Of a DNA stretch of 60,797 bases, positions 3,548 to 52,420 are shown piece by piece. The position numbers were made by a program, and so were the translations under genes. Below the pieces are notes generated by a model that ran no database searches, was not told where the DNA came from, and saw only the letters and a program-made list of their open reading frames with translations. Source of the DNA: a virus; IMG/VR virus record IMGVR_UViG_3300028549_000940, positions 1 to 60,797 of that record. One strand, 5' to 3'. Position 1 is the first letter of the stretch. Each line of letters starts with the position of its first letter.

Positions 3548-6244
3548 CTATCTAAGTTTTTGATTCATTCGCTCGTTTGTATCGAACTCAACCCCAAGTA
3601 TTTCGGCTGAATACATTCTGACACCAGCAACAACTATTTTAACCGCTCTCCACTTTCCGGGAATATGCCCAAATAGAACTTCTGAAACCATACCACCAGA
3701 ACCGAGCATAACCTTTTTCCCCGCGATCATTCCCCACTTTGAAGCATCTCCGTTGGTTGCGAGAACAGCAACTATAAGGCAATTTGCAGTGGCACCCTTG
3801 GTGAATACTTCCACCTTTAGCCCACTGATACCGGTTAACCCTTTTCCTGCGAAAATTGGGCGTGTTTCAAGCCTAAATGATTTTGCATTGGTGTTTGTTT
3901 TAGTTTGATCTACTTCAATAATTTCCGAAGGGTTGCTGGTTGGAATAGCCAAGATGCGGGAGTAATCGTTCAGTATTGAGATGTATCCTCGGTTTTTGGC
4001 ATACCAGGCTTTCGAATCCAAGCCAAAGGTGTAGGTAAAATCTTTTACGCGATTGTAGACGAGGAGTTCGTTGGTTTTTGGATCTATTGCCAGCCTCGTG
4101 CCCTGCAAAGCGATGTAGTCAAGCATGGAAGTTCTGTCTACTGGTATCGGTGTCCCGGCTGGAACGGTGTAAAACATTCCGGCCAAAACTCCATTCAGCT
4201 GCGCGTTGCTATCCAGCGAAGTGTCACAACTGGCTACTAGCGGAATGGAAAGGTTTGTTGATTGTCTTCCGGACAAAGCAAATATGCCGTGCTTGGTTTT
4301 AAAGAATACTGCTGCAGAGTTTGAAACTAAGTTGTCGTCCATAGCCACATCAGAAGTCATAGGAACGATCGACTGCACAAAAACTTCTCCTCCTCCTAAC
4401 TCAAGCGCCCAAACTCCGTCACCTGTAAAAACTATTACCGGATACTGACCGAACTGACCCGTTGAAGTTGGTTCGGTGGTTGCGGCCATCGCCACGACTT
4501 TAGTTGTGCCTACGTTATACGAGTAGCGTGCAGGGAATAGGTAAGGGTTTCCAGTTTCAGAAGCTTGAACGCGGTTGGTGTCGGTGATGGTAGGGTTGTA
4601 TGTTGGTTCTGGAATAACAGATGATAGCGTAGATACCTCCTTGAGTGTTTCTATCACATTTAACGGTCTAGTATAGTAGGCTATATTAGAAGTTTCTGAT
4701 GGCTGTAGTTTAAAGGAGTCTGCCAGTAGGTATGTATCTGTTAAGATGTTGTGTAAAATAATGTCCATAGCATACGCCCTGCTATCCGGGTAAACGATTG
4801 GATTGTTAGGTAATCTCAACCAGTAAGTAGGCCCTCCGGTATTGTATAACTCAATAGCAGCTGGTATAGTTCTAATAGACAACTGCTCGTCTGATGTTTT
4901 TAGCTTAAATATGCAGAAGACTTCGTGGGTAACACCAGACGGGGTAAACATGAGCACATCTTCTGTCTTCAGATTCTCCCCATACAGCTTAGTGGAGATA
5001 TGACCAAGTAATAACCGGTTATTGTAAACGAAAGATGTCTTTGCAGAAATAGTGTGTCGCGCCAAGTCTGTAGGGAACTGATCCTGCTGCTCAATAGTGT
5101 TGTAGTTGCACTTTGGCACATCTGTCCATGTCTCAGATATCGATTCAATGGTTAGCGATCCTACCTTATACAAACCAATCCACTTATACCAATCGCTAAC
5201 ATCAGCGTTGCCAGAAAAAAACGAGTTCTTAATTACCTTTTTTGCAACATCTTCGTAGGATAGGTATTCTTCACGATGAAGCAAGCGCTGTATGCCTGAT
5301 CGTTTGCTCATGTCTGCCGTTACTCTCGATTTCTCAGCACCATACTCCCACTTCCTAGATACAACAGGGGATGCGAAAATGGCTATACCTACAATCTTAC
5401 CTACTGCTGCCATAGCCGAAATTGTTTCATGTGACGCAACGCTCACCTGCAGCTTTCCAGGTCTGTAGTTTTCTATTTTAACATACTCGTGAGAAACTCC
5501 TGTCGTAGTTATTTTTACAGTGGTATAATCCGCAGGGTCTAGCGTTCCAATACCTGCACTGTCCGGGGATAGAGCTTGGTTCCCGTTGCCCATGTATATA
5601 AGCTGCGGAACCGATGGCCTATAGTATGACCCATCGTATAAAACAAATGCCGCAGATACAAACATCCACCCGTTAACCTTCCCGTCGGTTTGCCAATCGT
5701 TAAAGTATTGATCGACAGTAGCCTTTACGGATGCGTAGTTGTCTACACCTCCCGTGTTGGTCATGGTCATATCGTTGTTTAGCGTATTAATATCGGTAAC
5801 GTTTTGAAATAGAAATTTTACTGCCTCTGTCTCGTCAAGGGTGACGTTCTTGTAGATGGCGGTGGTGATGTTATACTCAAAGTATTTCATCTTAGCCTGT
5901 TCTCCGGCAACGCTGGTAATAACTACCAGGATCGCTCCCATCGCTTTCATGGTCACATCGAACTCAGCCCCTACAAATATAGTTTTAGGAGTTTCGTTTC
6001 CTATCCAGTAGTGCAGGTCTCCCGTTTGGAAGTTGTAGGCTGTAAAAACTTTAGCCGAGTCTATGGTGTGAATGAATACATCATCAAACTCGTGCGATGA
6101 AACAACAACCGAGTCGTTGTCAGAGGTGGCTACCCACGCGCCGTTCTCCAACCTCATCCCTTCTATGTGCTCAAGAGCGCCATCTGCTGTTCCGGCCATC
6201 GAAAGGCTTCGCGCCATGCCGGGAAAACTAATCCTTTGCCTCAT
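3548..6244 (-). CDS. Large protein of unknown function (898 aa); possible virion, tail or nozzle component
   Basis: Long uninterrupted ORF, translationally coupled to the upstream 161-aa gene by a 17-nt overlap. Beta-rich composition. The function is inferred only from size and from the promoter motif it shares with the terminase operon. Confidence 0.55.
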   Translation of the reverse strand: MRQRISFPGMARSLSMAGTADGALEHIEGMRLENGAWVATSDNDSVVVSSHEFDDVFIHTIDSAKVFTAYNFQTGDLHYWIGNETPKTIFVGAEFDVTMKAMGAILVVITSVAGEQAKMKYFEYNITTAIYKNVTLDETEAVKFLFQNVTDINTLNNDMTMTNTGGVDNYASVKATVDQYFNDWQTDGKVNGWMFVSAAFVLYDGSYYRPSVPQLIYMGNGNQALSPDSAGIGTLDPADYTTVKITTTGVSHEYVKIENYRPGKLQVSVASHETISAMAAVGKIVGIAIFASPVVSRKWEYGAEKSRVTADMSKRSGIQRLLHREEYLSYEDVAKKVIKNSFFSGNADVSDWYKWIGLYKVGSLTIESISETWTDVPKCNYNTIEQQDQFPTDLARHTISAKTSFVYNNRLLLGHISTKLYGENLKTEDVLMFTPSGVTHEVFCIFKLKTSDEQLSIRTIPAAIELYNTGGPTYWLRLPNNPIVYPDSRAYAMDIILHNILTDTYLLADSFKLQPSETSNIAYYTRPLNVIETLKEVSTLSSVIPEPTYNPTITDTNRVQASETGNPYLFPARYSYNVGTTKVVAMAATTEPTSTGQFGQYPVIVFTGDGVWALELGGGEVFVQSIVPMTSDVAMDDNLVSNSAAVFFKTKHGIFALSGRQSTNLSIPLVASCDTSLDSNAQLNGVLAGMFYTVPAGTPIPVDRTSMLDYIALQGTRLAIDPKTNELLVYNRVKDFTYTFGLDSKAWYAKNRGYISILNDYSRILAIPTSNPSEIIEVDQTKTNTNAKSFRLETRPIFAGKGLTGISGLKVEVFTKGATANCLIVAVLATNGDASKWGMIAGKKVMLGSGGMVSEVLFGHIPGKWRAVKIVVAGVRMYSAEILGVEFDTNERMNQKLR

Positions 6245-6713
6245 CGTCCTTAATTATTACGTTGTTTTGAATAAGCTGCTGATTTAATTGGTTGAAGAAG
6301 TTCACGGTTGGAGGTGTAACTCCCCCCTGCGCTGTCAGGACTTCGTTCACAAACCGTCCTATGTTGATTAGCTTGTTGATGTCGTTGGTATCGGCTATCT
6401 TACCCTCTAACTTTGCAAGAATAGCCATCCGCATATTTTGAGCAACCTCTACATAGTTTACCTTGGCGATTGCCACCTCTTTCACTACGGCCTCTCTGAT
6501 GGATTCAAGCTCGTTCTTTCGCTTCTGGTCACAGCCTAGGAGTATGTGCCACTTCCTGATCGTTACCTTGCTTACGCCAGTCTCTCTTTCGGTCTTGTTT
6601 GCGTTGTAATCGTTGGCACGGTAAAGCTCCACGACCTCAAGCTTGCTCTTGAGGTCATATTTAACCGGCTCCTTCTTGGCTGGTTTCCTTACGGGTTTGG
6701 CTTTGACTGTCAT
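6228..6713 (-). CDS. HTH-containing small protein (161 aa); terminase small subunit-like or regulator
   Basis: Basic N-terminus, then NKTERETGVSKVTIRKWH (HTH-like), then a helical C-half. First gene of a leftward operon. Confidence 0.5.
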   Translation of the reverse strand: MTVKAKPVRKPAKKEPVKYDLKSKLEVVELYRANDYNANKTERETGVSKVTIRKWHILLGCDQKRKNELESIREAVVKEVAIAKVNYVEVAQNMRMAILAKLEGKIADTNDINKLINIGRFVNEVLTAQGGVTPPTVNFFNQLNQQLIQNNVIIKDDEAKD

Positions 6714-6748
6714 AACGACAAAAATAGACTATATAAAGAGCAAAATAA

Positions 6749-6779
6749 GTATAACAAAAACCAAAATAGGTTTATCATA
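6749..6779. promoter_or_regulatory. Bipartite motif GTATAACAAAAAC-N11-TATCATA, copy 1, in a divergent intergenic region
   Basis: The same two boxes with the same 24-nt offset recur at 28586..28616. This copy lies 36 nt upstream of the leftward start at 6713. Confidence 0.5.
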
Positions 6780-6833
6780 TAAGGGTTATATTTAATCTAT
6801 TACCTACACTTGCCTAAACAATATATTCAAGGT

Positions 6834-7412
6834 ATGGCAATAGGTGGGGTATTAGCAGTCGCAGGGATAGGGATGAGTATCTACGACAGGATGAAGAGCG
6901 CCAGCGCTAACAACAGGGCACAACAATACCTAAGGAATCAGAAGAAAACCCTAAACGATTATCTATACGGGGAGCTTTCCAAAAATTATATGGACTCGAA
7001 CGAGGGTCAATCTGCCATCAAATCCGTTCGGGACAGCATTACCAAGAACAACCGCTCGGCAGAGAACTCTGCAGCCGCATCCGGTGGAACGGACGAATCA
7101 AAGCTAGCTGTAAAAGAAGTCAACGCAAAATCCTACGGAGACACTATTGCGAATATGGCTACTATGGCCGAACAGCGAAAGGCAGGGCTAAGGGGACAGC
7201 TTATCGGAGCCAACGGAGCCTACGACAGCCAGATAGCAGGGTTTGATAAGGACAGAGCAGAGCAGATGTCAAACGCTGCCGGAAACGCAATTAGCACCGC
7301 CTCTTCTGTTATTGCTGCCGACGGAAAGGGGGCTTTTGACAAGTATGACGACAAGGTAAATAAGCTATTCAAGTGGGGGAAATACAGTCCCGACTATAAA
7401 CCAGAAGAGTAA
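6834..7412 (+). CDS. Membrane-anchored Q/N/A-rich protein (193 aa from ATG 6834; alternative TTG at 6810); possible internal virion or ejection protein
   Basis: N-terminal hydrophobic helix MAIGGVLAVAGIGMSIY. First gene of the block that ends with the portal. Confidence 0.55.
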   Translation: MAIGGVLAVAGIGMSIYDRMKSASANNRAQQYLRNQKKTLNDYLYGELSKNYMDSNEGQSAIKSVRDSITKNNRSAENSAAASGGTDESKLAVKEVNAKSYGDTIANMATMAEQRKAGLRGQLIGANGAYDSQIAGFDKDRAEQMSNAAGNAISTASSVIAADGKGAFDKYDDKVNKLFKWGKYSPDYKPEE

Positions 7413-38432: not shown

Positions 38433-40832
38433 ATGGCGAGGTTAAAAGATATACTTAAGTCAGTAACAATATCTGCTACGGCAGGATCAGACTATGCAAC
38501 TCTTAATGATGCAGTGGCAGGGTCAGACATTAATACATATACGGTAGAGGGGGATATTGCGTTAACAGCAAATATAACTTTCCCCGCAAATTCCACTTTG
38601 ATTATAGGAACGCAGGGTAAGGTTTCTGGGGCATATACTCTTACTGGTAATAATACAGCGATTGTATTAGAGGGTGATAACTACGCCATCGGTAATGATA
38701 TTACTTTTGCAGGAACATGGGTGTGCAAATCTGTGCACGTAGACAATTTTGGAACTGTAGCAGACGGGGGAACAGATGATTACATCTCCATATCTAAAGC
38801 AATTTCTTTCTGTAAGTTAACTAAATCAAAAGAGTTACATTTCAGACAACTAACGTATAGGTGCAACACAACCATTGACTTGACTGGATTAACTGTGCAT
38901 GGTAATAACGCTAAGATAGTTTGTGCTTCTGGAGTGTTGGTGGTAGCTAGTGGAGCTGTAGGCACGTCTTACAACCTTAGTGGAAATGCCTATGTAGGAG
39001 ACTCATGGCTTAAATGTAATGATGCGACTCTGCTTAATTCTATAACAAACGGAGACTTAGTCAAGGTTATCTCTAATGAGATAATCCAACCACTCTCTAA
39101 CGAAAATACGAGAGCTGGAGAAATACACGAAGTAAGATCAGTAGACTTAATTAATGGATACATATATTTTAACGACTATTTATTTTACTCATATTCCACA
39201 TCAGATTCAGCTAGGGTAGCAAAGATTACTTATGCTAACCTAGTTATGAATAACATATCCCTTATTGTAGAGTCAGAAACAGTAGCCACCCACGCTGCAT
39301 TGATTGCGAAGGGAATTAAAAACTTAGTATTAGACAATGTATCTGCAAAAGGATATTACGCAGCTATCTCACTCCATGATTGCTATTCCCCACTTCTTAG
39401 GGTGAAAACGTTTCAGTCAGATCAAACTGGTATCGGGTACGGGGTTCAAATAGGTGGTTCTTGCATGAACAGCAATATTCAAGGTGTATTCGTCGGAGCA
39501 AGACATTGCGTTACTACAGGGAATGGTGGAATTGGTACTGGTAATGATGCTGGAGGTATATCATGGAACTCTAAGGTTCATGATTCTATCGGATTTGCAG
39601 GATTAAGTTCATGCACCGTATTCGACACTCACGCTTCCAGTGGTTCAATATATTATGACAATTGCGTGGCTATAGGAGGGGTTTTTAGGGACAAAATAAC
39701 CCTGATCACGGATTGGAATACACTATCCACGTATTCAGTTAACTCACTTGTTAGAAGTTCGTTAAAAAATCTCTATAAGGCGGCTATAGAGAACACCAAT
39801 AAAAATCCAGACACGGATATTGCAGGTAATTGGGTTGAAGATTGGGGTCATGCCTCACAGGCAGGTTTTAAATCCGAGGGTTTAAATCAATATTATACTG
39901 ATTGTAAGATATTTGGATGCGTAGGAGGGATAAATCTTACAGCCGTATCTGGGAATAGGACTAAGATTAAAAATTTAGAAGCATATGGCTGTAATGCAGT
40001 TATTCCAGCAAGCACTACCTCTTACTTCAAGGAGTTAGATGTTGATGGTATCACTGCTCAGGTAAATACAGTTGGCACTGCACTGTATATGCTAGGTAAA
40101 ATAGATAAATGGTCATTTTCTAATATAAAATTAACCAATATCTTACTTTTCGGAGCATCTATCACTACCGCAGTGCTACCAAAATCGTTGACAATAGATA
40201 ATTTTTCTGTAATATTCGAGGATGCTAAGGCTACTAGTAATTATGCTGTATCTACATTAGGATTATTTGAGGATATAACTCTAAGTAATGGTGAGATAAT
40301 AAATGCTAATTTTTTAAAAGTATCTCTTAATGAAGCTGGTAGTAATATTGATTCCGTATGTGTATTTAATGTTAGAAATACTAATCCAAAACTTGATGTA
40401 ATAACAATAGAACATACTGTAAATAATTTAATTATAAATGGATTATTAGTAAAGAACCCAACCACTTCTAACTATTTGATCTCAACAAAAAAATCTATGC
40501 AGAATTTGAGCATATCTAACTCTGCATACATCGGAACGAATGCTACTAAACTTATTTTCACATACCTAGCAGAAACTCTTGGAACGTTTAGTCACAATAA
40601 TAATATTTTTCCAAATTTAACTACCATAAAAACTGGTAGTGGGGCACTGGCATCACTAGAGGTTACTGGTGGGAGTATAGGAGCATTGAGAAGTATTTCT
40701 GGCTTTGGTATTCCAGAGGGAGCTGTTGCTGCCACCATTGGAACAAAATACACAAGGCTAGACGGAGGAACCAATACTACTCTATACGTTAAAGAGTCTG
40801 GTGTTGGTAATACTGGATGGATTGCTAAATAA
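38433..40832 (+). CDS. Tailspike with pectate-lyase-like parallel beta-helix (799 aa)
   Basis: VDNFGTVADGGTDDYISISKAISFCK resembles the Pectate_lyase_3-type N-cap. The sequence is long and repetitive with many N/G/T/I residues. Confidence 0.65.
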   Translation: MARLKDILKSVTISATAGSDYATLNDAVAGSDINTYTVEGDIALTANITFPANSTLIIGTQGKVSGAYTLTGNNTAIVLEGDNYAIGNDITFAGTWVCKSVHVDNFGTVADGGTDDYISISKAISFCKLTKSKELHFRQLTYRCNTTIDLTGLTVHGNNAKIVCASGVLVVASGAVGTSYNLSGNAYVGDSWLKCNDATLLNSITNGDLVKVISNEIIQPLSNENTRAGEIHEVRSVDLINGYIYFNDYLFYSYSTSDSARVAKITYANLVMNNISLIVESETVATHAALIAKGIKNLVLDNVSAKGYYAAISLHDCYSPLLRVKTFQSDQTGIGYGVQIGGSCMNSNIQGVFVGARHCVTTGNGGIGTGNDAGGISWNSKVHDSIGFAGLSSCTVFDTHASSGSIYYDNCVAIGGVFRDKITLITDWNTLSTYSVNSLVRSSLKNLYKAAIENTNKNPDTDIAGNWVEDWGHASQAGFKSEGLNQYYTDCKIFGCVGGINLTAVSGNRTKIKNLEAYGCNAVIPASTTSYFKELDVDGITAQVNTVGTALYMLGKIDKWSFSNIKLTNILLFGASITTAVLPKSLTIDNFSVIFEDAKATSNYAVSTLGLFEDITLSNGEIINANFLKVSLNEAGSNIDSVCVFNVRNTNPKLDVITIEHTVNNLIINGLLVKNPTTSNYLISTKKSMQNLSISNSAYIGTNATKLIFTYLAETLGTFSHNNNIFPNLTTIKTGSGALASLEVTGGSIGALRSISGFGIPEGAVAATIGTKYTRLDGGTNTTLYVKESGVGNTGWIAK

Positions 40833-41449: not shown

Positions 41450-42208
41450 ATGAGCGTTCAAACAGCAGAAGCCGCACTAAACAATGCGCTATCCTCCTAT
41501 TTAATTTACCTTTCTACCCATCAAACGGTAACGGTATCAGAGGTTGTTGCAGAGGAAACAGTAGTTACTCCAGTAGTGATGCGCTTTTCCCTTGCAGATA
41601 TCTTTGAAAAGGTAAAGATGCGAACTGCTAAGGCAGGGAAAGTCGCCAAGGGACCTAAAGGGGAATCGCTATTCGACGTCTTTGCAGTTACCAACGATGA
41701 TAAGGATTGGTTTGATATGGTAATCAAAGATGCCGCAACAAACGTTTATCCGGCTATCTCTCACTTGGCAAAGGCAACGGCTGGGTATATTCTTAACGAT
41801 GGGCCACAGATTACCCCATACACCGATGGAGATGGATACACAACCGAAGGGGAATACTACTTAAGCGAAGGCAAAATATATCTTTGCATAAAATCTGGCA
41901 TAGACTCATCTGTGTATGACGGAACCCTATTCACCGAGCAACCGTCTTATATTGATTCGCACGGTTACTTAACCGTTTTAATTGTTCCGGTGGAGAATAT
42001 GAACGGGGCCATGCTTTCACTGGCCGAGGCTTCGTTTATGGATGCCCTAACCTACTCCCTTTTAGAGGACTGGTGGAAGAACATTGTCGGGGATATAGAC
42101 AGAGCAGGGTTGGCTAAAATCGATTACGACAACTCTATTTCAAAGATGAAAGGAGCGCTCTACTTTAGAAACGTCCCTATGAAGAAGAAGGGTCACCCTT
42201 GGGGCTAA
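41450..42208 (+). CDS. Hypothetical protein (252 aa)
   Basis: ATG ORF. Its 3' end overlaps the convergent integrase 3' end by 32 nt. Confidence 0.55.
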   Translation: MSVQTAEAALNNALSSYLIYLSTHQTVTVSEVVAEETVVTPVVMRFSLADIFEKVKMRTAKAGKVAKGPKGESLFDVFAVTNDDKDWFDMVIKDAATNVYPAISHLAKATAGYILNDGPQITPYTDGDGYTTEGEYYLSEGKIYLCIKSGIDSSVYDGTLFTEQPSYIDSHGYLTVLIVPVENMNGAMLSLAEASFMDALTYSLLEDWWKNIVGDIDRAGLAKIDYDNSISKMKGALYFRNVPMKKKGHPWG

Positions 42209-43439
42209 GTATCTTCCTGGATATTTCCGAAAGCTTTTCCCTATCAAATTCTCCGTGATACTTGTTGTGGATCTTCTCGCTGTTATGACCTACCATTTGC
42301 ATTCTAATCTCTGCGGATACTCCGTTTTGCTTTAAAATATCCACAAATGAATGTCGTGACAGGTGAAAGTGAATGTCCTTGTCTATCTTTGCCCTGAGCG
42401 CAATTATCTTTAAGTTTCTGTTTACGGAGTAGTTTTGCCCTCCCACTGCGTTTTCATACTGCAGCATCTCTTTTTTATACTGCGCCATTATAGCTTTATC
42501 CTCCTTGGACGGGGGTGTTTCCAGTGCTGGGAACTCTCGCTTTAGTATTGGGAAGAGATAGTGGCCGGTATGGTAAGAAAAAGATTTAAGTATATCCATA
42601 GCCTCGGGCTCAAGGATTAGGCTAATTCTCTTCGTGAAGTTCGATTTTGAGGTTAAGTATGATAGTTCATTTCCGTTGATGTTCGATTTTCTCAAAAGAC
42701 AAACATCCCTAAATCTCATGCCCCACGCATAAAAGGAGAACATAAACAGCTGACGGGCTTTCCAAACCTCCGACCGTTCCTCTATCGAAACTGCCTCAAT
42801 GCTCCTTATTTCTTCAATAGAAAGTCTATCCCTGAAAACATCTACCTCTCGCATTCTAATACCCTCGAAAAGGGTATCTACGTCCAGCTTGCCCTCCTTG
42901 AGAATGCCTTTCAATACCACAAAGTTTGAAGCAATGGTGTTGGCTTTATTTCCCTTGGCCTCCATGAATTTTTTAAACCCGGTAATTGTGTCGGATGAAA
43001 TATCCGCGAATCTAACCCCGTCACCGGCATACTCCAAGAACTTGTCGATAATTCCACCATACCTTTTGTAGGTTCCAGGTTTACCCGCTTCGAGAAATGC
43101 AGCTCTTTTATTGTTAGCGGCATCCTTAAACAGGTCAGTCCGGACTATTGCCCTTGGCTTTACCAGATCGTCAATTGTAGGAGTATCCCCGCGCATCTCG
43201 AACTCCATGATGGTATCCTTTATCTCAGATACCCGCTTATTAATTACCCTATTTATCCTGACAAAATCGCTATGCTTCTGGTTCAGCTCGCACTTGGATG
43301 CGTTCCACTGAATCTCTGTGGCCGAACCTACGGTGATATACCTTCTTTTATTCGATCCGGTAGTTATCACTATCACTAGCGGGTAATCCCCATCTTTTAG
43401 GGGTTTACTTTTCCTTAACATCACGTTTACAGTAGCCAT
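42177..43439 (-). CDS. int: Tyrosine recombinase / phage integrase (420 aa)
   Basis: Arm-type N-terminus MATVNVMLRKSKPLKDGDYPLVIVI. Catalytic pattern R (MRFRDV), HLSRHSF and GHNSEKIHNKYHG (H..Y). Confidence 0.9.
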   Translation of the reverse strand: MATVNVMLRKSKPLKDGDYPLVIVITTGSNKRRYITVGSATEIQWNASKCELNQKHSDFVRINRVINKRVSEIKDTIMEFEMRGDTPTIDDLVKPRAIVRTDLFKDAANNKRAAFLEAGKPGTYKRYGGIIDKFLEYAGDGVRFADISSDTITGFKKFMEAKGNKANTIASNFVVLKGILKEGKLDVDTLFEGIRMREVDVFRDRLSIEEIRSIEAVSIEERSEVWKARQLFMFSFYAWGMRFRDVCLLRKSNINGNELSYLTSKSNFTKRISLILEPEAMDILKSFSYHTGHYLFPILKREFPALETPPSKEDKAIMAQYKKEMLQYENAVGGQNYSVNRNLKIIALRAKIDKDIHFHLSRHSFVDILKQNGVSAEIRMQMVGHNSEKIHNKYHGEFDREKLSEISRKILSPKGDPSSS

Positions 43440-45104: not shown

Positions 45105-46262
45105 TTACTCCTCCTTGTTAAGCATTTGGTTTATTACTTTAAAAATCTCGTAAGCAACTTGTGGAACTATGGCGTTTCCGTAGGCTTTAAGTGATTCTGA
45201 TCTGTGCTTTGGAAAGGTAATTCCAACCAGTTCACTGGGAACCCCATCATCTCCGCAACGAACCGGGGATTGAGTTGGGAACTCTTGCCAGTTTGGCTGA
45301 AAAAATCGGGTAAACTGTTCGTTTCGTTTCTCCCCGCTTTTTCTAACGCTTCCTGACTTCGCCCCCCTTTGTAGTCTCTCGTTGCCGGAGTCGGTAGCAT
45401 TTTGTTTCTTGCATAGTTCGTTAATCCCCATTGTTTGCTCTTGTCGCTTCTCCTGTCCGAGCAATCCGGAGTAGGTAATAGGTTGCTGTAAGCAAGGTCT
45501 ATCAGTTTCGATGAATAGGCCACTCCCGACTTTCTTATCTTTCTCTTTCCATCTACCAACTGTGGTACTGCTTTTGCTTCCGAAGATGTTGGCGTCGGAA
45601 GAAAACCCCTCTGGTAGATAAACCCAGTTGCCACCTCCTGCGCCAGCGTTCCGCTGTTCCCGAACGTCTGGCTTTTCTTGCTCAGGTTCTCGCTGTAGGC
45701 ATCCATCGCGCAGGGTGTTTTTAGCAACAAACCAGACTCTATCTCGCTTATGGGGAGCGCCGACACCTGCAGCTGGAAGAATATACGGTTGTACTTCGTA
45801 GCCCTCAGCTTCCAGGTCAGCGCACACCTCTTCGAATACCAGCCCCCCGTTCCAATTAGTAAGGCCGAAAACATTTTCCCCCACGACGTAACCCGGCTGA
45901 ATTTCCCGTATTGCTCTAAGCATTTGCGGCCAGAGGTGTCGAGCATCTTCCTTTCCGAGTCTTTTTCCAGCCTGTGAGTAGGGTTGGCAAGGGAATCCCC
46001 CGGAGAGCACATCAACTCTGTTTCTCCAAATAGTGAAGTCTGTCTTGGTAATATCTCCATAGCATATAGCGTTAGGCCAGTAATACTGTAAAACTTTTTG
46101 TCCAAATTCATTCCACTCGCAGTGAAAAATATTCTCCCATCCAATCCATTGGGCTGCTAGGTCGAACCCTCCTATGCCGGAGAATAGCGAAGCGTGCTTT
46201 ACCATACTAGCGGCCCAAATATTAGCGCAATGGCTATAATAGTTGCTATCACGCATGTCCAT
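45105..46262 (-). CDS. DNA (cytosine-5)-methyltransferase (385 aa) with a low-complexity middle third
   Basis: Motif I LFSGIGGF, IV GGFPCQPYSQAGK, VI VGENV, VIII GAPHKRDRVWFVA and X AYGNAIVPQVA are all in this frame. Residues about 181-325 are K/R/E/Q/G-rich. Confidence 0.85.
   Translation of the reverse strand: MDMRDSNYYSHCANIWAASMVKHASLFSGIGGFDLAAQWIGWENIFHCEWNEFGQKVLQYYWPNAICYGDITKTDFTIWRNRVDVLSGGFPCQPYSQAGKRLGKEDARHLWPQMLRAIREIQPGYVVGENVFGLTNWNGGLVFEEVCADLEAEGYEVQPYILPAAGVGAPHKRDRVWFVAKNTLRDGCLQREPEQEKPDVREQRNAGAGGGNWVYLPEGFSSDANIFGSKSSTTVGRWKEKDKKVGSGLFIETDRPCLQQPITYSGLLGQEKRQEQTMGINELCKKQNATDSGNERLQRGAKSGSVRKSGEKRNEQFTRFFQPNWQEFPTQSPVRCGDDGVPSELVGITFPKHRSESLKAYGNAIVPQVAYEIFKVINQMLNKEE
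45167..46144 (-). CDS. Nested +1-frame ORF inside the C5-methyltransferase gene (325 codons; TTG at 46144, first ATG at 46111)
   Basis: No stop for 978 nt in the +1 frame. Three LPTP repeats (FLPTPTSSE, LLPTPDCSD, MLPTPATRDYKGG) and LNPRFVAEMMGFPVNW, which resembles MTase motif IX. Expression is unproven. Confidence 0.5.
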   Translation of the reverse strand: MDGRIFFTASGMNLDKKFYSITGLTLYAMEILPRQTSLFGETELMCSPGDSLANPTHRLEKDSERKMLDTSGRKCLEQYGKFSRVTSWGKMFSALLIGTGGWYSKRCALTWKLRATKYNRIFFQLQVSALPISEIESGLLLKTPCAMDAYSENLSKKSQTFGNSGTLAQEVATGFIYQRGFLPTPTSSEAKAVPQLVDGKRKIRKSGVAYSSKLIDLAYSNLLPTPDCSDRRSDKSKQWGLTNYARNKMLPTPATRDYKGGRSQEALEKAGRNETNSLPDFFSQTGKSSQLNPRFVAEMMGFPVNWLELPFQSTDQNHLKPTETP

Positions 46263-46326
46263 ATAAATGCTCTTCCTTCTGGAGGATCTACCATTTCTGA
46301 AATGAACGATCCTTGGTTGGCTTCTG

Positions 46327-46677
46327 TCATAACCTTGAAAAGTTAGTTACGTCCATCTTTTTATTTGCCTTCAAAAGAACCAGCTCATCTCTGCGATTTA
46401 GCAGCTCGGTAGCGGATTGAGTCTTGAACTTTCCAATAACTGACTCCAGCTCCTTCAATTTTTCCTCTGGCATTACCAGCTCTCCGTCGGTGATTAGCTC
46501 TGAGATGATGTCGTGTGCCCCCATGAGCACAATAACGTCTGCCGTGGACAGCTGAATAAATATTGGCTTTGGCGTTCCGCTGGCAAGTAAGTAGGTTGCT
46601 ACCACCAAAAGCCCTACAAAGGCTAAAACTCCTAAGATTGTAAGCTGAGTAATACTCAGCAAAATGATTGCAGTCAT
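46327..46677 (-). CDS. Membrane protein (116 aa)
   Basis: N-terminal hydrophobic segments ILLSITQLTILGVLAFVGLLVVATYLL. Confidence 0.5.
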   Translation of the reverse strand: MTAIILLSITQLTILGVLAFVGLLVVATYLLASGTPKPIFIQLSTADVIVLMGAHDIISELITDGELVMPEEKLKELESVIGKFKTQSATELLNRRDELVLLKANKKMDVTNFSRL

Positions 46678-49604: not shown

Positions 49605-49865
49605 TTAGTTAAAATACTTGGTTAGGTAAGCCTCAATATCAACCTTCTCGTGCCGGTTGGAGTTAACTACATTTACCTTCCACAGGAGCGGGTAAACATT
49701 TAGCTTTCGGTAGTTCGCTTTTGAAAGCCGGAAGTGGTAGGCGGTGATGGCCTCGATGTCCACCGATAGCTTTGCAGTAAGCGCGAGTAGCAGCTGCGTG
49801 TTGGCCTCTAGCTTTGTCTTATTCCTAAGCGCTCTGGCCTCGTTGTTTTGAGTAATGGTTGTCAT
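49605..49865 (-). CDS. Hypothetical protein (86 aa)
   Basis: ATGA coupling with the helicase gene end. Confidence 0.45.
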   Translation of the reverse strand: MTTITQNNEARALRNKTKLEANTQLLLALTAKLSVDIEAITAYHFRLSKANYRKLNVYPLLWKVNVVNSNRHEKVDIEAYLTKYFN

Positions 49866-52420
49866 AGGTTATATTTAGTTTTAAAAAGGTTCATTACTCC
49901 GTGAACTATTTCTGCCTCTATTTCTTCGTCCGATCCATAGACTGTGTTGGCTACCTCTCGCTTCTCTTCAATAATTCGGTAAACCCAGTTATCGATGGTT
50001 CCTTTCCCTATAAAGTAAGGACAGGTAACAGCGTTTTTTTGACCTATCCGGTGGGCGCGATCCTCGGCCTGATCCATAATTGCCGGGTGCCAACCCATTT
50101 CAATAAAGGCTACCGTTGACGAAGCTGTCAGGGTAATACCTACCCCGGCGGCTGCAATGGAGCAGAAAATAAGCCGCGTTTTATCATCTTTTTGGAACTT
50201 ATCTACGTTGTCCTGTCGATCTGCTATTGAGTCTTTTCCGGTGACGGAAACGCTACCGGGGAACCGGTGCTTTAATTCTCCCAACACCTCTCTTAGGTGT
50301 CCGAATACTATTAGCTTCTCACCGTTGGCTAAAGTGTCTTTAATGAACTCTGTAACGGCCTCGATCTTACCCCTAGCTGAGATGTTCTTTAGTATCCCGA
50401 TGCGAACCATTGCCTCGCTGCGCATCTTTCTTTTAATGTCGTGCTCTGATTCGTTCTTATACTCCCTTAAGTATTCAGCCAAGTCTCTTTCGGCGGTGTC
50501 ATACTCCTCTTGGGTGGTGATGTCGCAAAGGATTACTTGTCTGGTTTTTTCGGGTAGGTCGGTAACCTCCGATTTCTCCCTACGGTAGTAGCAGGTTGAA
50601 AAAAGTAAGTCTCTAAGCTCCTCCAGCTTCGATTCGTCCTTAGTATCGTAGTAGTCGCTGAAGTGTGCGTAGCCTCCGAACTTGTCTATCTGGTTGATGA
50701 TTGCCAACTGCGAGGCTAGGTCTCTTGGAGTATTAATTACCGGTGTTCCAGTGAGTAAAATTTGATACTCCTTTCCGTAGGCTATTCCGCGAACGAACTT
50801 GCTTTGCTGCGCTGAAGGATCCTTGCAATTAGATACCAGTATTCCGTCGGCAAAGTAGTTGTGCGTTGTTTCTATTTCGAGGTCATATACTGGCGTATTA
50901 TTCCAATAACCATTGGCAAGTTCTCTAGAATTTCCTTGTTCGTAAACCTCACAACTCTCCACCCTAACGAGTTCAATACCTCTGTTTTCAATTTGTCTAG
51001 TGCCTTTACTTTTGTTGTGCCGTGAGACATTCCGTCTACTTCTATCGAAAGAAAAATATCCGGTATTGCAATGTCTGACTTGTAGCAACCTGGAATGTGT
51101 TGGTATAAGTGTTTTACAGAACTCGTTGCTATTGGATACTCTAGCGCACTTTCCGGCAAGTTTAGCTCTCTCCAAAGTGACAGTTGAGGTATGGTAAGTT
51201 GTCCATTCCCTCCTCTGTTTTTGAATGCACGACCTTTTAATTTTGCTGATACTTTCTCTATAATACCTGGCATCTGCATTGGATTGTTTAATTTCATCCT
51301 GTCTGAATGCATCTTCTTTAGCACAGGGTCTAGCATTTGCTTTGTAGTAGAAACACGTAATTTTTCTATTTTTTGCTCTGATCTGCTGGACAATATTATT
51401 TCCGGTTGTCTTACTCTCCATTTTGCAGAACAACTTTGACTGCAAAAACGAATCTTTGCAGATTTCTTTCCGTGAAATTTGTGCGTAAATGACTCCCCGC
51501 AATAAGCACACTTCTTCTCTACTAAAATAACCGGATGTAAGTCTTTGCGTTTCTGTATTACATCTGGACGAGAATTTACCGAAGTTGAAGCACAACTTCT
51601 TGAACAGAATATCGCTGTCGTTTTCCCCGCTTTCTTTGTTGAGAATGTCTTTCCGCAGTAAATACAAATACGATCCACTTTTGATTTCTTGTATTTCTTC
51701 GAGCCGTCCGGCATTAGTATATACTTTGTGTCCTTCTGTGGCGTAGAGCTCTCCTCTTGTATGCTTGATTCTAAATAATCTTCGTTGTCCAACTTCATTT
51801 GTCCATATATTTAAAATGCGTTTATATACTATTGTGTTTGTATCAATATCAAACGACGTAACTAAAATGTCTTTAATGTTGTTTTTTGCAATGTCACCAA
51901 TGCTAATCACTCCTTTATTTGTAGATATCATGGTGTTATGAGGAAAGCATCTGTGGCCCTCGTCGATTACTACTGCCTTAAATAGATTTATCGTTGATTT
52001 AAACCGAACATCTGCCAACCTCCACCCTTTTTTGGTTGGCATTTCAGCCACAAAATACTTCTTCAGCGACTCGTAGTTCACAATAAACACGTTGGCAATA
52101 CCGGCCTGAAAGAATAGGTGCCAGGTGTTCACCATTGAGTCGGATAAGATCATTGGTTTTAAATCGGTCCACATGGTAATCTCACGCTCCCAATTCAGCT
52201 TCAAAGAGGAGGGGCAAACCACTAAGCATGGGATAGCGTTGGCTCCTTTGATGGCCGCAATGGCCTGTAGGGTCTTACCAAGACCCATTTGGTCGCCAAC
52301 AATAACTCTCTTATTCTTTAGGATATATGCTGTTCCCGGCTTTTGGTAGGAGAACATTTCTCCTTTCAGTGGGATAGTAATTTCTAGCTCTGGTAGTGGG
52401 TAGTTGTTCTGGAAGTTCAT
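49862..52420 (-). CDS. SNF2-family helicase precursor containing an intein (852 aa; about 478 aa after splicing)
   Basis: Motif I GDQMGLGKT, motif II VVIDEGHR, then an intein, then CKDPSAQQSKF. C-terminal motifs V/VI AAGVGITLT and QAEDRAHRIGQ. Confidence 0.9.
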   Translation of the reverse strand: MNFQNNYPLPELEITIPLKGEMFSYQKPGTAYILKNKRVIVGDQMGLGKTLQAIAAIKGANAIPCLVVCPSSLKLNWEREITMWTDLKPMILSDSMVNTWHLFFQAGIANVFIVNYESLKKYFVAEMPTKKGWRLADVRFKSTINLFKAVVIDEGHRCFPHNTMISTNKGVISIGDIAKNNIKDILVTSFDIDTNTIVYKRILNIWTNEVGQRRLFRIKHTRGELYATEGHKVYTNAGRLEEIQEIKSGSYLYLLRKDILNKESGENDSDILFKKLCFNFGKFSSRCNTETQRLTSGYFSREEVCLLRGVIYAQISRKEICKDSFLQSKLFCKMESKTTGNNIVQQIRAKNRKITCFYYKANARPCAKEDAFRQDEIKQSNADARYYRESISKIKRSCIQKQRREWTTYHTSTVTLERAKLAGKCARVSNSNEFCKTLIPTHSRLLQVRHCNTGYFSFDRSRRNVSRHNKSKGTRQIENRGIELVRVESCEVYEQGNSRELANGYWNNTPVYDLEIETTHNYFADGILVSNCKDPSAQQSKFVRGIAYGKEYQILLTGTPVINTPRDLASQLAIINQIDKFGGYAHFSDYYDTKDESKLEELRDLLFSTCYYRREKSEVTDLPEKTRQVILCDITTQEEYDTAERDLAEYLREYKNESEHDIKRKMRSEAMVRIGILKNISARGKIEAVTEFIKDTLANGEKLIVFGHLREVLGELKHRFPGSVSVTGKDSIADRQDNVDKFQKDDKTRLIFCSIAAAGVGITLTASSTVAFIEMGWHPAIMDQAEDRAHRIGQKNAVTCPYFIGKGTIDNWVYRIIEEKREVANTVYGSDEEIEAEIVHGVMNLFKTKYNL
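50828..51949 (-). mobile_element. Intein (374 codons) inserted after helicase motif II
   Basis: Verified codons: Cys1 TGC at 51949-51947, terminal Asn AAT at 50830-50828, and +1 Cys TGC at 50827-50825. Blocks CFPHNTMISTNKGVISIGDI, LYATEGHKVYT and VYDLEIETTHNYFADGILVSN. Confidence 0.85.
50872..51798 (-). CDS. Nested +1-frame endonuclease gene inside the intein: zinc-ribbon repeats plus a DUF559/Vsr-like PD-(D/E)XK domain (308 aa)
   Basis: ATG at 51798 verified. CIYCGKTF..FCSRSC and CAYCGESF..FCSQSC repeats. C-terminal YKSDIAIPDIFLSIEVDGMSHG..LGWRVVRFTNKEI. The frame offset from the helicase start is 622 nt. Confidence 0.75.
   Translation of the reverse strand: MKLDNEDYLESSIQEESSTPQKDTKYILMPDGSKKYKKSKVDRICIYCGKTFSTKKAGKTTAIFCSRSCASTSVNSRPDVIQKRKDLHPVILVEKKCAYCGESFTHKFHGKKSAKIRFCSQSCSAKWRVRQPEIILSSRSEQKIEKLRVSTTKQMLDPVLKKMHSDRMKLNNPMQMPGIIEKVSAKLKGRAFKNRGGNGQLTIPQLSLWRELNLPESALEYPIATSSVKHLYQHIPGCYKSDIAIPDIFLSIEVDGMSHGTTKVKALDKLKTEVLNSLGWRVVRFTNKEILENLPMVIGIIRQYMTSK

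Follow-up and report, generated by a model that had tools for sequence, protein, structure and literature searches.

The window analysed here, which is the whole stretch of 60,797 nucleotides (nt) of the viral record IMGVR_UViG_3300028549_000940 (IMG/VR), contains at positions 45105-46262 a gene for a C5-cytosine methyltransferase that is open in two frames of the same strand. The two long open reading frames (ORFs), here called frame A and frame B, start 118 nt apart, which places frame B in the +1 frame relative to frame A, and frame B lies wholly within frame A (46144/46060..45167 inside 46262/46205..45105). The third frame has eight stops over the shared middle stretch. The original prediction, made from the letters of the sequence, considered the gene to be dual-coding, and both the open stretch of frame B and its offset as given there agree with the ORF list. 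The comparative and statistical tests described below support the dual-coding view. We propose that the two frames encode the alpha and beta subunits of a heterodimeric C5-cytosine DNA methyltransferase, the beta gene being nested in the alpha gene. The features of the locus are as follows.

46262..45105, minus strand: frame A ORF, 385 codons from the first ATG, the putative alpha subunit gene (ORF list, PF00145 match)
46144..45167, minus strand: frame B ORF, 325 codons from TTG 46144, in the +1 frame and nested in alpha, the putative beta subunit gene
45723..46205, minus strand: alpha large catalytic, S-adenosylmethionine-binding domain with motifs I-VIII (M.HhaI alignment, AlphaFold2 (AF2), Foldseek)
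45291..45722, minus strand: alpha spacer of 144 residues, hydrophilic and predicted to be unstructured, between motif VIII and WQEFPTQSP
45105..45290, minus strand: alpha C-terminal conserved segment WQEFPTQSP..GDDG..L.GITF.KHRSESLKAYGNAIVPQV. and the stop codon (HhaI alignment, AF2)
45182..45156, minus strand: motif X, within the alpha C-terminal segment
45938..46060, minus strand: beta leader over alpha motif IV, kept open, sequence unconstrained beyond background
45731..45937, minus strand: beta N-domain (TSGRKCLEQ..W.KMFSALLIG..W.S.RC.LTWKL..TKY.R..FQL) over alpha motifs V-VIII, truly dual-constrained
45278..45730, minus strand: beta cassettes LLKTP..GNSGTLAQE, FLPTPTSSE.., LLPTPDCSDRRS.., MLPTPATRDYKGG..., the putative target-recognition modules
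45212..45277, minus strand: beta motif IX (QLNPRFVAEMMGFPVNWLELPF) over alpha FPTQSP..GITF, with a gain in the PF00145 score and near-invariant residues

Frame A contains the motif set of a one-polypeptide enzyme, namely I (FxGxGG), IV (PCQ with the catalytic Cys), VI (ENV), VIII (RxR) and X (GNA), as had been claimed for it. The motifs can be read directly as FSGIGGF, GGFPCQPYS, ENV, HKRDRVWFVA and GNAIVPQV, and the frame matches PF00145 (E=5e-45) and TIGR00675 (135 bits, above the cutoff of 100.65). Methyl transfer to the C5 of cytosine is its predicted function. The probable start of alpha is ATG 46205 (MVKHASLF..., 366 amino acids), which matches the database gene call P0121; the consensus start of the family is M.HGSLFSGIGG. 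The 5' extension of frame A (46205-46262) is overlapped by a 43-codon ORF at 46199-46330 on the minus strand, and relatives have a gene call of 40 amino acids at this place (L086:1385-1507), so that alpha probably does not include the initial 19 codons of the 385-codon ORF.

Structurally, alpha resembles a known methyltransferase at its two ends. It aligns with residues 13-170 of M.HhaI (E=5e-20), the large domain (residues 1-165) is modelled by AF2 with a predicted local distance difference test score (pLDDT) of ~90, and the top Foldseek matches of the model are to M.HhaI over ~170 aligned columns, which is roughly half of that enzyme. The C-terminal helices (residues 332-365) are modelled with a pLDDT above 90, and alpha RSESLKAYGNAIVPQV aligns with HhaI 295-315, that is, with motif X. 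Between these parts, where about 145 residues rich in K/R/E/Q/G and poor in hydrophobic residues had been predicted, there are 144 residues with 47% K/R/E/Q/G and 20% hydrophobic residues versus 32% and 37%, respectively, in the catalytic part. The AF2 model of residues 170-330 has mostly pLDDT values below 50 and nearly no secondary structure. Neither motif IX nor a structured variable region between motifs VIII and X was found in alpha's own reading by PF00145, alignment or AF2.

Frame B, the probable start of which is ATG 46060 (MEILPRQTSLF..., 297 amino acids), reads LLKTP.., FLPTPTSSE, LLPTPDCSD, MLPTPATRDYKGG and then QLNPRFVAEMMGFPVNWLELPF. The LPTP repeats and the motif-IX-like element reported for this frame are indeed there, and the latter is backed by profile scores: the C-terminal reading of alpha itself reaches 12.5 bits against PF00145 (model positions 294-323), and beta motif IX joined to alpha motif X reaches 25.1 bits (+12.6; model positions 269-323). 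Since the composite extends the match in this way, motif IX is written in the beta frame, and frame A encodes motif X (GNAIVPQV) downstream of the beta stop codon. The first M of MMGFP is 71 nt (~24 codons) and the P ~19 codons upstream of the G of GNA, which is roughly the spacing of about 21 codons given earlier. In the protein databases beta is poorly represented. No beta models were found in Pfam and NCBIfam, and in the PDB the beta profile gave only a weak alignment of its C-terminus with HhaI 268-301, which is motif IX (E=1.8), and chance matches to LPTP. Beta does match phrog_1008 (E=4.7e-27), which is named 'DNA methyltransferase'.

Two cultured Bacteroides phages, PQ571269 and PQ571277 (~71% nt identity), have this ORF pair too, each frame having kept its content; both ORFs are intact, B nested in A, in L001 and L002. 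The beta protein has more than 1,100 relatives in a large protein collection, and its profile matches 17,095 clusters of 50% identity at E<=1e-3 and 6,354 at E<=1e-10. Eighty viral contigs were retrieved through frame B alone, and in 76 of them (~95%) an ORF in frame -1 exceeds that of frame B in length and has motifs IV, VI and X, with motif I pattern-matched in most. The third frame is open for just 4-83 codons in the viral loci (median ~18-20). Among the loci in bacterial genomes, which are mostly of Bacteroidota with some from scattered other phyla, 55 of 74 keep the full layout, and the remaining ones look decayed. Two chromosomal copies, L150:1347-2466 (Bacteroides faecalis) and L111:1438-2375 (B. 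xylanisolvens XB1A), have an intact beta and a broken or N-terminally truncated alpha; these are probably decaying prophage genes, or beta may have been retained for another partner.

Chance was considered an unlikely cause of the double opening in the original prediction, and synonymous shuffling together with the persistence of the layout bears this out. In the window, none of 300 synonymous shuffles of the middle codons of frame B leaves frame A open (6.3 stops expected), and 4% of the shuffles of frame A leave frame B open upstream (2.2 stops expected). Across the loci, shuffling of B gives ~5.4 expected stops in the alpha middle (probability of an open frame 0.008 per locus; none seen), and alpha is stop-free through this middle of 130-190 codons in ~95% of the loci. 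Shuffling of A gives 2.6 expected stops in the upstream part of beta (probability of an open frame 0.05 per locus). Over motifs V-VIII alpha-synonymous randomisation predicts 3.7 beta stops per sequence and there are none in 79 loci, and the beta leader has 0.13 stops per sequence versus 1.25 expected. A usable ATG in the beta frame upstream of the conserved part is present in 76 of the 79 loci (1.7 expected). The position of this ATG moves between alignment columns, the commonest one corresponding to 46060, and beta would be translated from this start codon of its own.

The original prediction had called for an alignment of homologues with the persistence of the ORFs and synonymous-site conservation as the readout. 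This alignment was made, as a codon alignment of the 79 loci in which alpha positions 1, 2 and 3 are beta positions 3, 1 and 2, and in it both ORFs are kept and conserved and each is under selection in defined segments. Over motifs I-IV the third positions of alpha vary freely (diversity ~0.5) and only alpha is constrained, beta being already open there. In the motif IV region the substitutions in the comparison of the close pair L086 and L087 are distributed by alpha phase as [2,1,10], and the identity excess of the beta leader is only +0.06. Over motifs V-VIII, 41% of the conserved alpha codons have a third-position diversity below 0.25 (Mann-Whitney p=5.5e-4 versus the alpha-only controls), and the identity in the +1 frame is 0.571 versus 0.354 under alpha-synonymous randomisation (z=60). 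In the control regions, where there is alpha only, and in the motif IV region, the corresponding excess is just ~0.04-0.06. Judging from these substitution patterns, the stretch over motifs V-VIII is truly dual-constrained. The dual coding that had been noticed, with the repeats and the motif IX element in the +1 frame, stands, but the conserved beta N-domain over motifs V-VIII had been overlooked.

Further downstream, the roles of the two frames change twice more. In the middle, alpha is unalignable and unconstrained, and the most variable phase is alpha position 1, which is beta position 3. The L086/L087 substitutions are distributed here by alpha phase as [40,12,4], and there are 45 alpha versus 11 beta differences per 124 residues. 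These patterns indicate that in the middle beta alone is selected and alpha is merely kept open. An alpha-frame excess of +0.18 in the LLKTP..GNSG module comes from 14 probably closely related loci and was given no weight. In the last ~25 codons of the overlap both frames are constrained: the beta identity is 0.79 versus a null of 0.29, the alpha third positions are constrained (p=5e-6), and the alpha identity excess over beta-synonymous randomisation is +0.27, versus just +0.04 in the last LPTP module tested. Past the beta stop codon the alpha-only pattern resumes.

The part of beta between the first LPTP and motif IX is made of exchangeable units. In L086 and L087 this block is replaced by different cassettes and both frames remain open, which we read from the alignment as recombinational cassette exchange inside a dual-coding gene. 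Compared with window positions 45105-46205, the genes L086:1501-2547 and L087:1501-2547 have ~95% nt identity in both flanks and a swapped central part of 360 nt. There are two to four cassettes per locus, and the types recur in different combinations; single-linkage clustering chained 71 modules into one heterogeneous cluster, and only the recurrence of the smaller types was used. Since the cassettes lie between motifs VIII and IX, are exchangeable and face an empty alpha middle, they may well be target-recognition modules.

Natural fusions of alpha and beta also exist. P0126 (482 amino acids) and P0152 (545 amino acids) begin with a complete alpha that has a 13-residue link from motif VIII to motif X instead of the spacer; a beta module with the N-domain, the cassettes and LNPEFVGEMMGFPxYWT comes next without a change of frame. 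Both the W..FP...P of alpha and the LNP.FV.EMMGFP of beta are conserved in these proteins though they no longer overlap. The alpha C-terminal segment of the window matches P0126 189-247 (E=4e-12), the beta N-domain has a homologue at P0126 256-303, and the alpha spacer has no counterpart there. The P0152 gene (L083:4001-5638) lies among glycosyltransferase, epimerase and Methyltransf_24 genes, and there is no obvious phage replication module around it.

Other one-ORF proteins that run from alpha into beta are of a different kind. In L168:1001-1882, L169:1001-2047 and L170:1001-1843 the two frames are joined by a single indel, the site of which differs in each, and the displaced frames are open; in P0056, read at the protein level, the switch is apparently at motif IV. 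Such chimeras are recent inactivations or assembly errors that contaminate the protein databases. Candidates for a canonical ancestor in a single frame were also rejected: the matches with ~98-100% query coverage that were read are alpha-type proteins aligned through the junk middle, and those with ~90% coverage, where the DNA was read, are single-indel derivatives with differing junctions. A search with a composite A-B-A protein gave no genuine one-frame relative among the matches examined out of 120 listed.

In the M.HhaI and M.HaeIII structures, the large domain comprises motifs I-VIII plus motif X, the small domain the variable region and motif IX. By this division alpha would be the large domain and beta the would-be small domain with an extra N-domain. 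Our preferred reading, to which we assign a probability of roughly 85%, is that the locus encodes a heterodimeric alpha/beta C5-cytosine DNA methyltransferase with beta nested in alpha, that is, a two-polypeptide enzyme with both genes on the same DNA in two reading frames of one strand. Alpha would consist of the large catalytic domain with motifs I-VIII, an unstructured linking spacer of ~144 residues and the motif X helix, the spacer drifting freely in sequence yet staying stop-free. Beta would start at its own ATG 46060 within alpha and supply what alpha lacks: a putative alpha-docking element in the N-domain, as in the beta subunit of M.EcoHK31I (see below), candidate target-recognition modules in the exchangeable LPTP cassettes, and motif IX. 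Together the two subunits could assemble into the canonical two-lobed enzyme, which would act in guarding phage DNA from host restriction. Of the three explanations offered in the original prediction, a nested gene supplying target recognition in trans is the one that the evidence favours.

Several points weigh against this reading. Beta translation and the heterodimer are inferred for this phage and its close relatives. The order of frame selection, A, B, A, is also what would be expected of a doubly frameshifted single chain. The AF2 model of beta alone, made from a 30-sequence alignment, has a low-confidence pLDDT of 45.6. As the LPTP cassettes match neither the variable region of the Pfam model nor any PDB chain, their recognition role rests on position, variability and exchange. 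The shuffle and diversity statistics treat related loci as independent. The likeness to M.EcoHK31I is one of architecture, by the published description, and the recognition domain of that enzyme is predicted to be in alpha, unlike in the window family, in which the alpha middle is unconstrained and the cassettes are in beta.

Both proteins could be made and beta nevertheless have a function unrelated to methylation, for example as an independent DNA-binding or anti-defence protein. Beta alone indeed has neither a confident fold nor an annotated family beyond the PHROG name, and the cassettes resemble no solved structure. However, beta ends in the very motif IX that is missing from alpha, and its distance to motif X is right. 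The nesting of beta in alpha is seen in different phyla, and some proteins are fusions of the two. The nested beta of M.EcoHK31I is, moreover, needed for methylation. We regard an unrelated function as improbable.

The order of selection noted above would also suit a single canonical chain made by two programmed frameshifts, +1 after motif VIII into frame B and -1 after motif IX back to frame A, in which case the two frames would not yield separate proteins. Purifying selection acts first on A, then on B and again on A, following the canonical order of motif VIII, variable region, IX and X, the composite beats alpha alone by ~12 bits on PF00145, and an A5 run sits at the first junction in the window. 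Isoforms made by frameshifting had been suggested in the original prediction on account of this A5 run (45722-45718) and of a TTAAAG (45190-45185), both of which are present as described. Neither is conserved, however (diversity 0.61/0.31/0.56 at alignment column 235 for the A5 run; third-position diversity 0.60 and 0.41 at columns 984-985 for TTAAAG), and both frames are open far past any putative shift site; the suggestion is not supported. The alpha middle (130-190 codons) is open in ~95% of the loci though ~5 stops are expected, and upstream of the supposed shift site beta has more than 95 codons that are open and conserved, together with its own ATG in 76 of 79 loci. The frameshift model requires neither, and these observations are therefore counted against it. 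In addition, the natural fusions place beta after a complete alpha and not between motifs VIII and X, the one-frame A-then-B proteins in the databases are single-indel derivatives with differing junction sites, and M.EcoHK31I functions from separately expressed alpha and beta. The marks of a frameshift or slippage gene are absent from these loci: the junction nucleotides are unconserved, neither frame closes for hundreds of codons past the junctions, and the second frame has an ATG of its own. A doubly frameshifted chain is thus hardly probable.

It is very improbable that frame B is a non-functional open frame, a by-product of frame A conservation and composition, with only alpha being made. 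Invariant alpha residues (such as W and M codons) do account for part of the frame B conservation over motifs IV-VIII, and Pfam and NCBIfam lack a frame B model. The substitutions in the middle, on the other hand, fall on the third positions of B ([40,12,4]), with 11 B versus 45 A differences per 124 residues, and the B identity exceeds alpha-synonymous randomisation far more than in the control regions. Frame B carries motif IX, and a homologous module stands un-overlapped in P0126 and P0152. Purifying selection on frame B refutes the tolerated, functionless open frame that had been listed among the possible explanations. A sequencing or assembly artefact with compensating indels, for which only the single indels of a few database relatives and the a priori oddity of the layout could be cited, is already refuted, since more than 130 independent loci of viruses and bacteria have the same layout, as do the cultured phages PQ571269 and PQ571277 and the Paenibacillus phages.

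Within the heterodimer reading, a more specific version would have beta not as a minor accessory with motif IX but as the whole small domain, with a docking N-domain, an array of recognition cassettes and motif IX, extending in the +1 frame over about 300 codons of the gene for the large domain, and the alpha variable region as a stop-free passenger. We give this version about an even chance. If true, the published assignment for enzymes of the EcoHK31I type, with the recognition domain in alpha, would need revision, and cassette exchange would re-program specificity with the sequence of the catalytic subunit untouched. The family would also be, for prokaryotic viruses, one of the largest and oldest in which long genes overlap on the same strand (more than 6,000 clusters of 50% identity at E<=1e-10, in several phyla).

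Of the two ORFs, only one is listed by gene callers and in databases, either alpha as 'DNA cytosine methyltransferase' with a meaningless middle or beta as 'hypothetical protein'. In thousands of phage and prophage genomes the description of half of the enzyme is therefore wrong. For research on overlapping genes, the locus offers a same-strand overlap of ~297 codons in which alpha-only, beta-only and dual-constrained segments are side by side, and the un-overlapped natural fusions can be used as controls. If beta holds the recognition cassettes, this is a natural two-part system in which specificity is swapped by recombination and the catalytic subunit stays fixed. Such a system is relevant to the engineering of split, targetable methyltransferases, a use already made of M.EcoHK31I.

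The window is a temperate phage or prophage, with an integrase gene at 42177-43439 and, at 38433-40832, a gene of tail-spike-like type. The methyltransferase gene is adjoined by replication initiator, DnaA-C-like and helicase genes. No restriction endonuclease gene was found among the nine neighbouring ORFs screened (ten proteins), and the enzyme is therefore taken to be an orphan, presumably anti-restriction, methyltransferase. An ORF of 852 amino acids at 49862-52420 on the minus strand has a C-terminal helicase match (phrog_62, E=3e-90) and a weak N-terminal match to phrog_11801 (DNA methyltransferase) at residues 21-84. The G+C content of the dual-coding gene (45105-46262) is 48% versus 43% for the whole window, an excess that could come from stop avoidance in two frames or from foreign origin.

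Totally overlapping same-strand ORFs of C5-methyltransferases have been reported from Streptococcus thermophilus phages of the 5093 group, a pneumococcal phage and a conjugative streptococcal transposon (PMC5601072). Phage 5093 was considered as a case of the same arrangement and rejected: its enzyme is canonical with motif IX in frame, and the +1 ORF is a different sequence of 141 amino acids over motifs IV-VIII. This +1 ORF was not found by tblastn with two beta queries. In Streptococcus phage 5093 (L171; enzyme at 6067-7026, +1 ORF at 6218-6643) it reads ..NSGMMWNGKCLT..CSLLDILEENVDEKFFLS, a string which we take to resemble other methyltransferase-associated proteins. It may represent a second, different overprinted family.

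Tandem recognition modules between motifs VIII and IX, which can be exchanged or added, are characteristic of the multispecific enzymes of the Bacillus phages SPR, phi3T and rho11s, which are single polypeptides in one frame. The window family resembles these in having two to four recurrent cassettes per locus that are replaced between 95%-identical genes, a likeness of arrangement. With M.AquI it shares the division of a C5-methyltransferase into two polypeptides, the fold tolerating a split within the variable region. However, in the M.AquI type the genes are arranged in tandem and motifs IX and X are both on the second polypeptide, whereas the window has motif X in alpha and a nested beta.

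The existence of a nested gene is already known in principle from M.EcoHK31I and from some phage annotations. The idea of a nested gene in the original prediction was correct, but it missed the published precedent of M.EcoHK31I and the annotation of Paenibacillus larvae phages. The M.EcoHK31I heterodimer was reportedly described by Lee, Kam and Shaw in 1995, and the nested-gene principle is said to have been known since then. M.EcoHK31I of Escherichia coli (YGGCCR) is a biochemically proven heterodimeric alpha/beta C5-methyltransferase, the beta of which lies wholly within the alpha gene in another frame (PMC2836561, PMC3404938). Alpha-silent loss of the beta start codons abolishes its activity, which is restored by beta from a second plasmid (PMC2836561), and the beta N-terminus governs the association with alpha, truncation weakening it (PMC2836561; PMC3404938). 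Similarly, beta of the window is nested in alpha on the same strand in a different frame, and the window family has a conserved and selected beta N-domain. For M.EcoHK31I beta there are separate internal start codons with partial redundancy, and an own ATG is predicted for beta of the window. Differences are also apparent: beta of the window overlaps ~297 codons including alpha motifs IV-VIII, and M.EcoHK31I is part of a restriction-modification system, whereas the window gene is an orphan in the replication module of a temperate phage. Searches by blastn with the window gene and a gammaproteobacterial relative gave no match in 5,426 E. coli genomes. Three points may go beyond the literature searched: how large and old the family is, the double constraint on the N-domain over motifs V-VIII, and the indicated location of the recognition cassettes in beta and not in alpha.

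In the P. larvae phages Diva (gp49/gp50) and Shelly (55/56) a homologous nested coding sequence is annotated as 'internal gene', and no functional study of it was found in the literature searched. Alpha of the window is assigned to phrog_363 (E=1.3e-72); phrog_1008 takes in beta of the window (E=4.7e-27) as well as the Diva internal gene (E=1e-73). By tblastn, beta of the window and the Diva internal gene are ~29% identical over 91% of the length, and 48 Paenibacillus phage records were matched. The hosts are Firmicutes versus Bacteroidota, and the Paenibacillus beta is shorter (234 amino acids, with fewer cassettes), but it has the same nesting and the same order of N-domain, xPTPxAxD cassettes and LNPxWVExLMGFPxGWT.

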